A stretch of DNA of 64,000 nt from a virus: IMG/VR virus record IMGVR_UViG_3300033146_003848, positions 82,141-146,140 of that record. One strand, 5' to 3'. The notes beneath the pieces are model-generated. The model was given only the letters and a program-made list of their open reading frames with translations, had not been told where the DNA came from and made no database searches. The translations under genes and the position numbers were made by a program. Positions 24,708 to 41,522 of this stretch are shown piece by piece; the first letter of the stretch is position 1; the number at the start of each line of letters is the position of its first letter.

Positions 24708-24782
24708 TGAAATATTTTGTAGCAATGTATTATGGCGAACGATATTTGACCACCATTAAGACTATTAATGAGGAGAATTAAA

Positions 24783-25085
24783 ATGAATATATTGCCAAAA
24801 ACAATGTCGAGTAGTAACGAAGCCACAATGAGAATTAAAAAATTCCATCATCCCTTTATTCACGTCCAATTACATGAGGTAAAGGATAACAAAACAAATA
24901 AAAAGTATTCAATATTACAGTGGCAATATTGGACACATGGTGATAATATTAATGTGACTAGAGTCGCAATTAAGGATATCACTAGTGACGAGGCCATTTT
25001 ACTTTGCGATGAATTGCCTGTTTTGACCGAGACCCTTCATGATGAAATTGCGGAGAAATTTACAATATTAAGTGTTCAATCATAG
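24783..25085 (+). CDS. hypothetical protein
   Basis: AGGAGAATTAAAATG. Confidence 0.65.
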   Translation: MNILPKTMSSSNEATMRIKKFHHPFIHVQLHEVKDNKTNKKYSILQWQYWTHGDNINVTRVAIKDITSDEAILLCDELPVLTETLHDEIAEKFTILSVQS

Positions 25086-25095
25086 GAGAATTAAA

Positions 25096-25422
25096 ATGAG
25101 AAAAATAGTAACATGGGTTGACGATAATGGAAATTCTTGGTCAGACTGTACTGAGAGAGAGGCAATCAAGAAGTCTAAGACCCTTAGAAATTGCACTAAT
25201 TGCAAAGATTGCACCTATTGTGTGAATTGCACAAATTGCACTAATTGTACTGAATGTGGGAATTTAGACGGTTGTGAACATTGTCACCAATGTGTGAATT
25301 GTAATAATTGTTTTCACTGTGATTATTGCACTGATTGCACCGACTGCAAAAATTGCACTAAATGTTTAGAGATTCGTGTTTCTAATGGTTCTAATTACGT
25401 TAACGTGAAACGAGGAGAATAA
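25096..25422 (+). CDS. Cys-repeat protein, paralog 2
   Basis: WVDDNGNSWSDCT..EA..KS + long CxxC run. Confidence 0.75.
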   Translation: MRKIVTWVDDNGNSWSDCTEREAIKKSKTLRNCTNCKDCTYCVNCTNCTNCTECGNLDGCEHCHQCVNCNNCFHCDYCTDCTDCKNCTKCLEIRVSNGSNYVNVKRGE

Positions 25423-25423
25423 A

Positions 25424-25702
25424 ATGATAGAAAAGAAAATTGCCCAATTTAGAGAAGAATTGAAATTCGACACTAAAGGGTTAAAAATGTTTAATGATAT
25501 CATCGAACACTCAAAGACCGATTCCAAATGTAATGCCTTATTTGAATTATACTTGACTTCACCTGTTCATAAGACTTTAACCCTCTTTAAAATCCTCAGA
25601 CTGACATTTCCAAATGAGGCAAAAGAAGACTCCTTGGAATTTACAAATAAATGGACATCAATAGACTCCGCATCAAATGAAATTTCCATCAGAAATAATT
25701 GA
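25424..25702 (+). CDS. hypothetical protein
   Basis: GAGGAG RBS. Confidence 0.65.
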   Translation: MIEKKIAQFREELKFDTKGLKMFNDIIEHSKTDSKCNALFELYLTSPVHKTLTLFKILRLTFPNEAKEDSLEFTNKWTSIDSASNEISIRNN

Positions 25703-25762
25703 CATGGTCTAAAATAAATGTTATACTAGTATTATGATAGTATCAATAGTGACACTATCAAT
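25699..25762 (+). promoter_or_regulatory. early promoter + ATAG-loop hairpin
   Basis: TTGACATGG..TGTTATACT; TGATAGTATCA-ATAG-TGACACTATCA. Confidence 0.8.
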
Positions 25763-25793
25763 TGATTATTAATTTAACACTATGGAGATCAAG

Positions 25794-26483
25794 ATGAATG
25801 GAAAGGAATTAATGCGAGGATATCATTGCACAAAGGCAACAGTCTTGATGTGGGTCTCACACGGTCTTCCACACGAAGGAGAAATATTCTCTAAAATGTC
25901 ATTCGATGCCAATGAAGTAGAAAAATGGTTAATAGAGAATAAAGTCATGAATCATTGGACAACCCAGGAATTAAAACAAAATTATAACCTCAAAAAAAGA
26001 CAGTACGACGTTTGGAGAAGTCACGGACTCCCTGAACAAAAAAGTCCCCTGTTCCCAAAAAGTATGAGAGTATATAATATCCTCGAAGTAGAACAATGGG
26101 TGTTAGAGAATGATGCCCTAAATTTCCACGAATCAAAGTCGACAACCAACGATATATGTGCCCGATATAATATCACTAGAGCCGCAGTCTCACTATTCAT
26201 CAAACAAGGACTCCCAAATGAAAAGACAATATATGGCCTCCGTTACGATATGAATGAAGTACACAAATGGATGATTAAGAATAATAAAGTCAACGGGAAA
26301 AAGAATCGCAAAAAGAAAAGGCAATCAGAAACAAAAGAAGACCTCATCATCACACTAAAAGGCCTCAATAAGTGGAAAAGTGATTGGCAAAAAAGAGGTG
26401 TTGATGACTCCAATAAAATTCAATCGTTGAATAATTTAATTGAAGGTGTGAAAAAAGACTTAGAAAAATTCGATAAATGTTGA
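25794..26483 (+). CDS. triple winged-HTH DNA-binding protein, paralog 2
   Basis: co-linear with 23432-24094 (DIC..YN.TRA.VS...K.GL). Confidence 0.7.
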   Translation: MNGKELMRGYHCTKATVLMWVSHGLPHEGEIFSKMSFDANEVEKWLIENKVMNHWTTQELKQNYNLKKRQYDVWRSHGLPEQKSPLFPKSMRVYNILEVEQWVLENDALNFHESKSTTNDICARYNITRAAVSLFIKQGLPNEKTIYGLRYDMNEVHKWMIKNNKVNGKKNRKKKRQSETKEDLIITLKGLNKWKSDWQKRGVDDSNKIQSLNNLIEGVKKDLEKFDKC

Positions 26484-26540
26484 CTCGGTTGATATTATAT
26501 GTTATAGTACTATTATAAAGTAAAAGTCAATAGTGACTTG
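26480..26540 (+). promoter_or_regulatory. early promoter + ATAG-loop hairpin
   Basis: TTGACTCGG..TGTTATAGT; AAGTCA-ATAG-TGACTT. Confidence 0.75.
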
Positions 26541-26575
26541 TTAGAGTGATTAATTCATACAAAGGAGAGACAACA

Positions 26576-39291: not shown

Positions 39292-39322
39292 AAAAAGTAG
39301 TTGCTATTCGCAACTACTTTTT
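39292..39322. terminator. bidirectional terminator copy
   Basis: same sequence as 35732. Confidence 0.85.
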
Positions 39323-39342
39323 GTCAAAATCTTGGAATTATA

Positions 39343-39813
39343 TTATTTTTTTAACATATCTAATCGTTTCAATTCAGATTCGATTTTATCAAACTCATCA
39401 TTCGAAAATTTTCCGTTTCTGATAATATACTCGAGATCGTTTACATAAAAATTGTACTCAACAGCAAGTTCAAAACTATGCATAGTAAAAAAATACTTTT
39501 TTGTTTCAATCATTTTTTCACTCATTTCATCAATTCCATTATTGTCGAGCATATGAAATAACATTTCTTCATTATCTATATCTTTTGATATAGACATTAA
39601 AATAATTATAAACTCGCATTTTTTGGAATACGAAATTCCTTCATAATTATTATCATTTAATTCAAAGATTTTATAAACATCATTATCATATTCTTTAATG
39701 AAAGAATCATGAAACAGTGCATATGGAATATCAATATTAAAGATATTGCACTTTTCACAAACTGTCTCTTTTGTTGTTGTTGTTGTTGTTGTTGTTGTTG
39801 TTGATTTTTTCAT
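39343..39813 (-). CDS. acidic cassette protein with poly-Thr (ACA)10 tract
   Basis: MKKSTTTTTTTTTTK; paralog of 35775-36233. Confidence 0.75.
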   Translation of the reverse strand: MKKSTTTTTTTTTTKETVCEKCNIFNIDIPYALFHDSFIKEYDNDVYKIFELNDNNYEGISYSKKCEFIIILMSISKDIDNEEMLFHMLDNNGIDEMSEKMIETKKYFFTMHSFELAVEYNFYVNDLEYIIRNGKFSNDEFDKIESELKRLDMLKK

Positions 39814-39899
39814 GATAATTTTCCTGTTTTTAAAGTCTATACTGACTATTAGTTTTAAAAAGAAACTGTTTTAAACTATTTTAAAACAGTTTAAAAAAC

Positions 39900-39929
39900 A
39901 ACTTGCAAGACTTTGAAGTCTTGCAAGTT
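39900..39929 (-). terminator. stem-loop
   Basis: AACTTGCAAGACTT-TG-AAGTCTTGCAAGTT. Confidence 0.65.
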
Positions 39930-39939
39930 TCAAGTAATT

Positions 39940-40659
39940 CTATAGTTGCACTATAGAATTACTTCGATTAAGCAAGATCATTATGTCGTTTACTCTTGAT
40001 GTTGCATTTTTTCCTTTTCTTATCTTAGTGTATAAGACATTTTTAAGAGTTCGGAACGCAAAAGAATTTGCATTATTTTTCTGATTTTTAGCAAAGTTAT
40101 GAATTATAACAATACTATTTTTCGATAAATTTGCAACTGAAAAAATTCCAGATTCAGAAAGTGTAAATTTCAGATTCATATTGTTTGTTTTTATAATGTC
40201 TTGACTTTCTGCTAAAATTTCACTTTTCATAACTGAAGCAATAAGTATAGTACTTGCATAAACATAATTTAAGCACTTTTCTTTATAATTCAATAAATTT
40301 GCAGTTTTTTCGACTTTAAACTTTTTTCCATTTTGCATCGTGATAACTAATTTTCCAGTGATAAAATCTGAATTATTTTTTATATCATGTTTTGTGCAAA
40401 ATTTTTCCGACATAAAGTACTTTTCAAAATTCTTTACTGCATACAGTGACTTGAAACTTAAATTTTCTAAAAGTTTATATCGTTTTGTAGAATTCAAATT
40501 ATCAAAAAATTGAGAAACTTTTTTCTTTTCAAGTTCAACTTCTTTGATTTTTTCGTCATTTTTTTTTTCAGTTTCTAAATTTGCAAGATAACTTGTTCTT
40601 TCTTTATCTGACAAATTAAGATTAAAATTGTTGTTTGATTTTTCTGTTAAATTTTTCAT
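39940..40659 (-). CDS. basic Lys/Asn-rich hypothetical protein, first gene of the - strand block
   Basis: 239 aa, AGGAAA RBS, two-hairpin leader; no Pro or Trp. Confidence 0.75.
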   Translation of the reverse strand: MKNLTEKSNNNFNLNLSDKERTSYLANLETEKKNDEKIKEVELEKKKVSQFFDNLNSTKRYKLLENLSFKSLYAVKNFEKYFMSEKFCTKHDIKNNSDFITGKLVITMQNGKKFKVEKTANLLNYKEKCLNYVYASTILIASVMKSEILAESQDIIKTNNMNLKFTLSESGIFSVANLSKNSIVIIHNFAKNQKNNANSFAFRTLKNVLYTKIRKGKNATSRVNDIMILLNRSNSIVQL

Positions 40660-40767
40660 AAAATTTTCCTAATTTTTAAGTCTTATTTTGACTAAAATGT
40701 TTAAAAAAAACTGTATAACGATATTGTTATACAGTCAAGTAATTAAAAGAGCGTTGTTTCTTATAAA

Positions 40768-40796
40768 ATAATAGCATATAATTTCCATTTAGTCAA
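40768..40796 (-). promoter_or_regulatory. sigma70-like promoter
   Basis: TTGACT-17-TATTAT with TG. Confidence 0.65.
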
Positions 40797-41337
40797 TTAT
40801 TTTTTGCAATTTTTTTAAACTGTTTTGTAAGTAATTAAAATTACTACAAAATAAAATCACTTTTATTTTTAATAAAATCAATTAAAAATAAATAAAAATG
40901 TCTTTTTTTAAAAAAAAACTAAATTTTAAATTTTAAAATAGAGAAAAAAATACTCTTTTTATTTTTCTCACGACTAGAACTTGCAATATGAAACTATTGC
41001 TATTCGCAAGTATTCTGAAAAATTAAAAAATCTATTTCTGAAAAAAATCAATAAATAAATTTTTCTGTAAAATTGCAACGCAAGCAAGTCAAATTTTAAT
41101 TTTCTGAAAAAAGTAATATAAAACTATTAAAAAATGAAAAAGTTTCTTAAAATCAAATTTTGTTCGTTTTTGGAAAAGACAAAAAAAGACAAAAAAATTC
41201 ATTTTTTCAAAAATTAAAACATCTTGTTTTTTTTCAAATTTCTTGAATTGTTTCAAAATTGATACAAAACTGTATTTTTTCGCTTTTTATATATAGACGA
41301 ACTATTGACTTAATTTTTTTGAACGGTTACCAGGCGA

Positions 41338-41522
41338 CTGATGGATCTCATCCAGGATCCAGGGAATATTTTGGCTGATGGATCTCATCCAGGATCCAGG
41401 GAATATTTTGGCTGATGGATCTCATCCAGGATCCAGGGAATATTTTAACTGATGGATCTCATCCAGGATCCAGGGAATATTTTAACTGATGGATCTCATC
41501 CAGGATCCAGGGAATATTTTGG
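41338..41522. repeat. 5 x 37-bp tandem array
   Basis: CTGATGGATCTCATCCAGGATCCAGGGAATATTTTRR at 41338, 41375, 41412, 41449, 41486. Confidence 0.95.

Follow-up and report, generated by a model that had tools for sequence, protein, structure and literature searches.

Avoidance of restriction sites is commonly assessed by tallying exact sites over a whole genome. The early region analyzed here raises the question of why words one letter away from such a site should be missing from a single block of genes. The region lies in a 64,000-nucleotide stretch (the window; positions 82,141 to 146,140 of IMG/VR record IMGVR_UViG_3300033146_003848) of an uncultured T4-like phage, and coordinates are those of the window except where genome positions are given. 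A sequence-only reading had described the region as an alternation of two mutually exclusive states, GG-rich DNA free of AGCT-like 4-mers (state B) and GG-free DNA rich in them (state C).

A single zone depleted of AGCT-like words

We counted nine words, namely AGCT and its neighbors AACT/AGTT, AGAT/ATCT, AGCA/TGCT, and AGCG/CGCT, and found an early-gene block of 11–12 kb to be purged of them, with the following parts:

24722–35741, no strand: core purge zone, in which AGCT and 8 of its 12 one-mismatch neighbors are almost absent
23828–24721, no strand: left shoulder of 0.9 kb, with strong words depleted and weak words near normal
28500–32700, no strand: zone center, with the most complete purge (AGAT/ATCT, 0; AGTT, one)
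35735–35765, minus strand: terminator hairpin of the cassette gene 35775–36290, the abrupt right boundary of the zone

The core zone contains 13 copies of the nine words versus ~358 expected, the density across the whole genome being 32.6/kb. AACT and AGTT together occur once (123 expected) and AGAT and ATCT 12 times (73 expected), with no copies of AGCA, TGCT, AGCG, CGCT, or AGCT. The purge is far outside chance and is the sole such zone in the 146-kb contig, whose 8 longest word-free gaps all fall within the core zone; an unsupervised scan of all 4-mers found anomalous gaps limited to AGCT-like words. The gap claimed for 24.7–35.2 kb is real and sharply bounded, but it reaches 35741. Both orientations of each word are missing from plus-strand blocks, minus-strand blocks, and noncoding DNA, the loss covering both strands and coding and noncoding sequence alike, which argues for recognition of double-stranded DNA.

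The loss is graded both by word and by position. All avoided words belong to the Hamming-1 shell of AGCT, a word missing genome-wide (0 versus 192 expected across the contig): AACT/AGTT and AGCD/HGCT are gone, AGAT/ATCT are about 90% gone, ACCT/AGGT about half gone, and GGCT/AGCC untouched, a word-graded penalty resembling a star-site hierarchy. Along the zone, the residual weak words follow a U shape, with a complete center and leaky flanks, all 12 lying outside the central 38% (P about 0.003). In the left shoulder, strong-word avoidance sets in at ~23828, within the gene 23405–24094; strong words number 2–3 versus ~19 expected and AGAT/ATCT 9 versus 12.7, and each of 1,317 other 894-nt intervals has at least 5 strong words. 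Past the zone, the first avoided words (AGTT, TGCT, and AACT) reappear in the terminator hairpin. The grading across center, flanks, and left shoulder fits selection within this genome.

Permutation of synonymous codons produced 175 ± 10 words and recoding of the zone with out-of-zone codon usage 221 ± 12, each versus 12 observed, so that the purge bears on DNA words and not on proteins or codon usage. In simulated neutral decay, ~11 strong words are regained per 1% divergence; as 1 is present, the purge is either maintained now or less than ~0.5% divergence old.

Avoidance of exact 4-bp palindromes extends across the contig, as is known from phage genomes: GCGC, like AGCT, is fully absent, GGCC and CGCG are strongly under-used, the closest relative also avoids AGCT (1 versus 25 expected), and relatives avoid other palindromes. 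Unlike such genome-wide avoidance, the additional avoidance in the zone is regional, includes nonpalindromic words, and is ordered by likeness to one palindrome.

Cassettes, repeats, and paralogues around the boundaries

The following elements lie within or around the zone:

35742–41330, minus strand: state C, AT-rich single-gene early cassettes of the promoter–UTR–gene–terminator type, as in PeSL regions
35523–35741, plus strand: TAGGACGG repeat island, right edge of the zone
36717–37003 and 37961–38185: sister TAGGACGG islands
35221–35520, minus strand: in-zone copy of a C-type noncoding scaffold, with 1 avoided word kept
24091–24199, plus strand: promoter/5′UTR cassette just outside the core zone
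25782–26483, plus strand: in-zone HTH-repeat protein, paralogue of 23405–24094 (42% identity), with weak TerS/HTH PHROG matches
34948–35220, minus strand: in-zone cassette-family protein, paralogue of 37044–37553 in state C
41338–41524, no strand: 37 bp × 5.1 array, each unit containing GGATCC and CCAGG

Related sequences stand on both sides of the boundaries. The promoter/5′UTR cassette at 24091–24199 is 84%–89% identical to in-zone cassettes (28156–28266 and others) and nearer to them than to any other out-of-zone cassette. One protein family does occur in both states, as had been claimed (34948–35220 versus 37044–37553, 38% identity, E = 4e-17), and the HTH-repeat protein has its paralogue outside the core zone. 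These paralogues, together with the near-identical regulatory cassettes that straddle the boundary, bear out the view that the state is set by position and not by the gene. The scaffold at 35221–35520 is 73%–81% identical to its out-of-zone copies, which are 77%–83% identical among themselves; point changes in it delete AGTT, AACT, and AGAT, for example turning TATAGTT into TATACTA in the −10 region.

The TAGGACGG repeat has 17 copies in the 146-kb contig, all at 28988–39208 and 15 of the 17 on the plus strand. The three islands, which have more GG and none of the avoided words, are copies of one 49–81-nt repeat unit; their lack of words therefore amounts to a single weak event. The 37-bp array said to close the region is present, with five units, outside the purge zone, where leftward early cassettes give way to rightward late genes.

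Possible selection against near-cognate sites in early DNA

We tentatively attribute the purge to selection, still acting and dependent on position, that clears a privileged segment of early DNA of near-cognate ("star") sites for an AluI-like nuclease. The purge, its symmetry on both strands, its grading, and its independence from coding are observed; from them we infer the nuclease itself and a reason why this block is special. The in-zone scaffold, an ordinary member of its repeat family except for the missing words, supports this explanation, as does the close identity of regulatory cassettes within the zone to those just beyond it.

Selection would act on double-stranded DNA, its target being the star sites of an endonuclease with the proper site AGCT. 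That site would be lethal anywhere in the genome and its one-mismatch neighbors harmful in this block only, in the order AACT/AGTT = AGCA/TGCT = AGCG/CGCT > AGAT/ATCT > ACCT/AGGT > GGCT/AGCC, the last being harmless. The block would be the part of the genome that faces the nuclease at high activity or for longest; it may enter or be uncovered first and have to stay intact during early expression from host promoters, with the remaining genome shielded or arriving later. Zone genes are small and of early type, with consensus sigma-70 promoters; TTGACA-N17-TATAAT-type consensus promoters and conserved leaders occur across the zone, and the early genes are probably read by host RNA polymerase. Candidates for the nuclease are a restriction enzyme of the AluI type from the host and an early phage enzyme that shreds host DNA, the latter because AT-rich DNA offers an avoided word about once in 30 bp.

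The sequence-only reading had early DNA evading a DNA-cutting enzyme, by analogy with first-step transfer in T5; this part of it remains the best explanation, plausible if short of probable. The first-step-transfer (pre-early) DNA of T5 is free of restriction sites, and Davison has hypothesized that T5 A1 acts as a restriction-like nuclease to which this DNA offers no sites (10.1101/866236). As in T5, the segment makes up ~8% of the genome (11 kb here, from a total of 146 kb or more), carries small early genes with host-type promoters, lacks nuclease words that are common elsewhere in the genome, and has a repeat-rich noncoding element at one edge. Unlike in T5, this edge carries TAGGACGG islands instead of a DnaA-box iss, the avoided set is a near-cognate 4-mer shell rather than a 6-bp site, and some other palindromes are commoner, not rarer, in the zone. 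The phage is also T4-like and contractile-tailed, and a terminal position, a terminal repeat, and two-step entry, as in T5, would be predictions for it. In Autographiviridae (Murciavirus), the leading region avoids Type I R-M motifs (PMC12455610); the two cases are alike in that motif placement, not just copy number, would be decisive, with motif-free early DNA permitting escape. Murciavirus is a T7-like podovirus with a known entry order that avoids one bipartite Type I motif over a few kb, whereas here nine 4-mers are missing over 11–12 kb.

Several observations stand against the star-site explanation. First entry or a genome-end position of the block is not supported by our analysis: the backbone is of the T4 type (sheath, topoisomerase II subunits, family B polymerase, and a gp46/47-like pair), relatives have a gp15-like neighbor, and one relative has a T4-type large terminase. 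Such terminases usually go with headful packaging and no fixed ends. Around the zone, we found no flanking repeats, and there is no T5 iss-type DnaA-box cluster in or beside it; the ends of the contig, a linear metagenome-assembled record that is about 65% complete (35% missing), do not overlap. Neither a nuclease nor a known anti-restriction gene was recognized among the zone proteins and the larger proteins of the contig. The zone is moreover a general compositional island that tolerates GGCC, GTAC, and CCGG, all three of which are under-used in the rest of the genome (11 of the 20 GGCC copies of the contig lie inside the zone), the opposite of what is expected for a maximally exposed segment. 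To our knowledge, and from a literature search, AluI-type enzymes have not been described as cleaving nonpalindromic near-cognate sites at a strength that could purge a genome.

Other explanations of the purge

The main rival, possible though doubtful in our estimation, is mosaic import, the block having recently recombined into this genome at regulatory cassettes or close to them, in the manner of PeSL-type hyperplastic regions. The donor would be a related phage that evolved under a different defense regime, and its history would account for the purge, the codon bias, and the GGCC, GTAC, and CCGG tolerance, none of which would have a function here. Consistent with import, the tetranucleotide signature of the zone is nearly foreign (r = 0.60 versus the rest of the genome; other, native segments reach 0.87 ± 0.03 and a different phage 0.46), and its palindrome-avoidance profile, GC3, and codon usage are distinct, the fraction of C-ending codons being 0.4–0.5 versus 0.1–0.2 elsewhere, a bias that a simulated purge fails to reproduce. 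The abrupt right boundary adjoins the conserved terminator/island repeat, and T4-type hyperplastic regions, which carry promoter-early stem-loop (PeSL) cassettes, swap modules at such cassettes (PMC2839356). Like PeSL regions, the locus has arrays of small ORFans, each with a strong sigma-70-type promoter, a conserved leader, and a stem-loop terminator, in near-identical cassettes that could mediate modular exchange. Unlike here, no region-wide oligonucleotide purge has been reported for PeSL regions; cassette exchange accounts for the architecture and possibly for the right boundary, but not for the word avoidance.

The geometry of the zone also argues against import. Although the atypical oligonucleotide signature and codon usage of a horizontally acquired island are present, no flanking repeats were found, and the boundaries of the atypical features do not coincide, the purge domain being offset at both ends from the composition/cassette-subfamily domain. 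On the left, the purge sets in within a gene and is graded according to word strength; the few weak words left trace a U shape across the zone; cassettes in the zone and beside it are as similar as noted above; and the scaffold has diverged no further than its sisters have. Any import would need to date back less than ~0.5% divergence. Searches for a close relative with this region, a donor, or an allelic variant found none, and those for DNA and protein relatives of the zone genes gave nothing beyond one 33% match. Import would, in addition, merely shift the unexplained purge to another genome.

A stronger version of the star-site explanation, which we consider unlikely, holds that a deliberately relaxed AluI-like nuclease of the phage or the host shreds the host chromosome and that the site-free pre-early segment alone survives. 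Such an enzyme would cut AT-rich DNA about every 30 bp, and the 11–12-kb segment, devoid of cuttable words, would owe its immunity to missing sites, with the rest of the genome delivered or uncovered later. This would be a T5-like two-stage infection in a T4-type myovirus, with the star-site hierarchy of the enzyme recorded in vivo as a graded purge.

Avoidance of modification, rather than of cleavage, appears improbable. In that case, a relaxed-specificity DNA methyltransferase or another modifying enzyme, from host or phage, would act on the AGCT-like words, and the block would stay unmodified to escape a methyl-dependent nuclease (Type IV, McrBC-like R-mC) or to keep early promoters readable. 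The contig does encode two adenine methyltransferase-like proteins, one DUF4942+MTS (genome 883–2523) and one of the D12 class (genome 37598–38671), and, judging from the word list, an R-mC rule would give a full purge of AACT/TGCT/CGCT and a weaker one of ATCT, with ACCT exempt. The same rule, however, wrongly calls for a purge of GGCT/AGCC, the contig has no C5 methyltransferase, genome-wide AGCT avoidance argues for cutting and not protection, and modification gives no account of why this block alone must remain unmodified.

The zoning originally proposed has GG-type and AGCT-like motifs kept apart in states that alternate, as a defense against bipartite or two-site enzymes or as a pattern of two marks that would pace injection; by the criterion put forward with it, this is largely refuted and very improbable. 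In its favor, the zone lacks one class, part of state C is poor in GG/CC, and the islands are GG-richer and word-free. With GC controlled, however, the words and non-GGAA GG/CC correlate at −0.34 here; the remaining genome gives −0.36 and the late region −0.38, and a partial correlation no stronger than background indicates no special mutual exclusion. There is one zone and no alternation: state B is not notably GG-rich (observed/expected 1.03 for GG and 1.27 for CC), state C is not rich in AGCT-like words (30.5/kb, the genome norm), and the supposed recurrence of state B in the islands reduces to copies of one repeat, the first of them within the zone. Of the GG-free character of state C, what holds is a modest, local depletion: the cassette bodies stand at a GG/CC observed/expected of 0.61–0.66, and values of 0.3–0.5 are confined to 39.3–41.3 kb. 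An artefact of chimeric assembly or of systematic base-calling errors at modified motifs is scarcely credible even for an incomplete, metagenome-assembled record with a repeat-rich region, given that ORFs are intact, avoidance proceeds through context-dependent synonymous choices, cassettes are common to both sides of both boundaries, the left edge is graded, and AGCT avoidance recurs in the independent assembly of a relative.

Exact-site avoidance is thus genome-wide in this phage, and near-cognate avoidance is limited to one early block and graded by word and position. If selection against star sites is the correct explanation, the block would provide the first genomic evidence of star-type cleavage selecting hard enough to recode 11 kb and would show a T4-like phage, for which staged entry is unexpected, to have a physically privileged stretch of DNA. 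It would also open a route, from sequence only, to such segments and to nuclease specificities in uncultured phages, and it is relevant to a long-standing puzzle, the survival of first-step DNA while the phage brings about the destruction of host DNA.

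A single early-gene zone depleted of AGCT-like words

Nine tetranucleotides (AGCT, AACT, AGTT, AGAT, ATCT, AGCA, TGCT, AGCG, and CGCT) were counted along the contig, which contains 4,760 such sites in total (32.6/kb). Just 13 of them fall within positions 24722–35741, a block of early genes referred to here as the purge zone, and the contig's eight longest site-free gaps all lie within the same interval. Under a Markov model, AACT and AGTT are found in the zone once against 123 expected and AGAT and ATCT 12 times against 73 expected, whereas AGCA, TGCT, AGCG, CGCT, and AGCT are not observed at all. 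When all 4-mers were scanned blindly for gaps of excessive length, these words alone emerged, always at this zone; no further 5-mers or 6-mers are purged in it, and dinucleotide bias was rejected as the cause, since no dinucleotide accounts for the purge.

Permutation of synonymous codons among the zone genes, which preserves the proteins and the codon usage of the zone, yielded 175 ± 10 words, and recoding the genes according to out-of-zone codon usage yielded 221 ± 12, compared with 12 observed. Thus, the constraint acts on DNA words, through context-dependent synonymous choice. The purge extends to the non-coding DNA of the zone. Each word is lost in both orientations, in plus- and minus-strand gene blocks alike, and the relevant recognition is therefore that of duplex DNA.

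The region consists of small genes with consensus sigma-70-type promoters and a conserved leader of ~80 nt, running rightward as far as ~28.9 kb and leftward between 41.3 and 29.6 kb. The sequence-only reading had proposed that position, not gene, determines the state of the DNA, and this was borne out by the copies present on both sides of the boundaries. These include the cassette-family paralogues listed below, an HTH-repeat protein with one copy on each side of the left boundary, and an in-zone non-coding scaffold (35221–35520), which is 73%–81% similar to 3 out-of-zone sisters that are 77%–83% similar to one another. A single avoided word is left in the scaffold, the others having been erased by point changes such as those in the −10 region.

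Features of the purge zone and its surroundings
23828–24721 (0.9 kb): left shoulder, with 2–3 strong words (AGCT, AACT/AGTT, AGCA/TGCT, and AGCG/CGCT) vs ~19 expected
27678–27736: iteron-like ACCAACCAATACCA, 3.4 copies, in the zone centre, which is poor in ORFs and richer in GC
27955–28160, plus strand: candidate structured RNA, ~200 nt, in the zone's non-coding centre
34948–35220 (in the zone) and 37044–37553 (in the leftward cassettes beyond it): cassette-family paralogues, by protein comparison

The same reading had described 2 mutually exclusive motif states, GG-type and AGCT-like, alternating along the region. With the effect of GC removed, the 2 motif classes correlate at −0.34 in the region, compared with −0.36 for the remaining genome and −0.38 for the late region; by the refutation criterion attached to the claim itself, mutual exclusion is therefore generic. 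The zone is not GG-rich (observed/expected 1.03), the leftward cassettes at 35.7–41.3 kb carry AGCT-like words at a normal density (30.5/kb) and are merely very AT-rich (22% GC), and the 3 islands taken for recurrences of the GG-rich state are copies of one repeat unit. The supposed absence of GG from the cassettes stands as a marked GG/CC deficit at 39.3–41.3 kb (observed/expected 0.3–0.5), but the deficit is modest elsewhere (0.61–0.66). The real feature is a single, highly unusual early-gene zone purged of AGCT-like words, not a two-state zoning system. The GG/CC depletion at 39300–41300, ~3 SD below the genome mean, covers the last 2 leftward cassettes and ~0.6 kb of ORF-free DNA of ~20% GC; most of the GG that remains there belongs to ribosome-binding-site GGAA.

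Word strength, edges, and contents of the zone

The avoided set corresponds to the one-mismatch shell of AGCT, unevenly depleted. The contig has no AGCT anywhere (0 vs 192 expected) and no GCGC. Within the zone, AACT/AGTT, AGCA/TGCT, and AGCG/CGCT are essentially eliminated (one AACT/AGTT is left) and the weak words AGAT/ATCT are depleted by ~90%, whereas about half of ACCT/AGGT is left in the left and central parts and GGCT/AGCC is not depleted. AGAT/ATCT is missing altogether from the central 4.2 kb (28.5–32.7 kb), with the 12 survivors located toward the zone edges. In the left shoulder, which starts within a gene, AGAT/ATCT is near normal; the low strong-word count is unmatched among 1,317 other windows. 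The right boundary is abrupt, with words resuming in a terminator hairpin (35735–35765) just past a TAGGACGG island. The second-lowest density of AGCT-like words outside the zone (2–7 per 500 nt vs 17.5 ± 5), at 60600–61900 within a DUF7487 gene (60729–62255), is probably compositional.

The octamer TAGGACGG occurs 17 times in the 146-kb contig, always within 28988–39208; 15 copies are on the plus strand, and most belong to tandem islands located downstream of a cassette terminator. The copies could serve as an array of operators or as a Chi-like polar signal oriented toward a DNA end on the right; a search of metagenomes for the triple-TAGGACGG pattern hit 119 tandem-repeat loci, all unrelated and none similar to the window. 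In the zone centre, the candidate RNA lies directly 3′ of a TTGACA-N17-TATACT promoter (27919–27947), ends in a hairpin and T-rich run, and has a predicted fold energy of −61.6 kcal/mol vs −43.9 ± 3.8 for shuffled sequences (z = −4.7); it has no match in Rfam. The stretch at 29130–29420 shares the GGTTTCCCTTAACC motif with it and folds no better than shuffled sequences. Five GGATCC sites cluster at 27766–29339 and 5 more lie in a 37-bp array (41338–41524); the iteron-like ACCAACCAATACCA repeats and the GGATCC cluster could mark an origin or a protein-binding region. The zone also encodes 3 Cys-rich paralogues with CTxC/CxxC repeats (25072–25422 and 26546–26929 on the plus strand, 33748–34194 on the minus strand), assigned to phrog_15341, a family of unknown function, and a DUF6011 protein (27117–27539, plus strand), the best phage homologues of which (35%–41% identity) come from phages infecting Alphaproteobacteria and Actinobacteria. 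The homologue of Caulobacter phage CcrPW is located inside the annotated terminal repeat.

Explanations for the regional avoidance

The best-supported explanation, which we advance tentatively, is that this region avoids an AGCT nuclease of relaxed specificity. If a restriction-type endonuclease cleaved star sites, duplex DNA would incur a penalty graded across the words of the one-mismatch shell. The regional limit would require a reason for this block alone to be exposed, and the known precedents concern first-entering DNA. The first-step DNA of T5 lacks sites that do no harm later, and Davison proposed that the A1 function of T5 is a restriction-like nuclease, the sites of which are missing from first-step DNA (10.1101/866236); in Murciavirus, motifs matter in the leading region only (PMC12455610). 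The zone resembles such DNA in comprising ~8% of the contig, carrying early genes, and having a repeat element at one edge, although, unlike in T5, T5-type DnaA boxes are absent, and a backbone of T4 type speaks for headful packaging, which counts against the analogy. Nor does this reading account for the relaxed avoidance of GGCC, GTAC, and CCGG in the zone (11 of 20, 38 of 141, and 9 of 35 contig sites, respectively). No nuclease or anti-restriction genes were recognized among the zone proteins and the larger contig proteins, and the literature searched yielded no account of near-cognate sites being avoided regionally.

The main rival, very recent mosaic import of the zone, is less probable. 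In its general composition, too, the zone is an island. Once the avoided words and all of their neighbours had been masked, its tetranucleotide signature and that of the remaining genome correlated at r = 0.60, compared with 0.87 ± 0.03 for other 11-kb segments and 0.46 for segments of a different phage. C-ending Tyr/His/Phe/Cys codons reach 0.4–0.5 vs 0.1–0.2 elsewhere, an excess not reproduced by a simulated purge of out-of-zone genes. Together with the GGCC/GTAC/CCGG content, these features are typical of foreign DNA, and T4-type hyperplastic regions exchange modules at promoter/stem-loop cassettes (PMC2839356). However, the composition and cassette-subfamily domain (~24.1–34.1 kb) is offset at both ends from the purge domain (23.8 or 24.7–35.74 kb), depletion at the left edge depends on word strength, and the cassette immediately outside the zone is 84%–89% identical to in-zone cassettes and less similar to every other cassette. 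Furthermore, surviving words belong nearly all to the weak class, unlike in random decay, and unconstrained mutation would restore ~11 strong words per 1% divergence, yet just 1 is present; therefore, unless the purge is currently maintained, the block must have come from a close relative less than ~0.5% divergence ago, and there too the purge would probably have been regional. We favour in-situ selection over import.

In a possible modification variant, near-cognate methylation would be followed by cleavage by a methyl-dependent R-mC nuclease. It accounts for the weak loss of ATCT and for the sparing of ACCT but fails on the exempt GGCT, and its fit to the word list is poorer than that of the relaxed-specificity nuclease. 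Four further candidates were rejected: second-order "mutational robustness" against AGCT creation is expected genome-wide and on GGCT/AGCC, yet the latter are spared; CviJI-type RGCY specificity has GGCT, AGCC, and GGCC, the spared words, as its sites; T4-type primase sites (GTT/GCT) conflict with the purge of GTT solely in the AGTT context; and an RNA-level signal conflicts with the loss of both orientations in both gene blocks.

Phage background and relatives

The window forms the final 64 kb of one contig of 146,140 bp. This source record, a metagenomic virus from IMG/VR (classed as linear and ~65% complete; 30% GC), has a T4-type core, including a 1294-aa tail sheath (best phage matches in Campylobacter phages, 33% identity), topoisomerase II subunits, a split family B polymerase, and a gp46/47-like pair; NAD-salvage genes are also encoded. 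No tRNAs were found, and Rfam has no match in the window or in the zone's non-coding centre. Near and distant DNA searches found no similar DNA in the phage collection, and neither protein-to-locus scans of viral contigs nor a pattern search with the conserved leader in viral and metagenome contigs yielded a usable relative carrying the zone. A homologue search with a 233-aa zone protein returned itself alone, and a full HMMER search with a 216-aa zone protein returned a single match (33% identity). Two adenine DNA methyltransferase-like genes lie outside the window.

Methyltransferase-like genes (contig coordinates)
883–2523, plus strand: DUF4942 and MTS domains
37598–38671, minus strand: D12 class, Dam-like

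Closer relatives are short contigs without this region. The closest relative found likewise avoids AGCT (1 vs 25 expected). In G001, a 126-kb relative with 50% sheath identity, a blind 4-mer gap scan found no comparable zone; GATC and CATG are avoided instead, with 0 GATC sites vs 371 expected, whereas GATC frequency is normal in the phage studied here. The 2 phages seem to follow opposite strategies toward the same kind of restriction.
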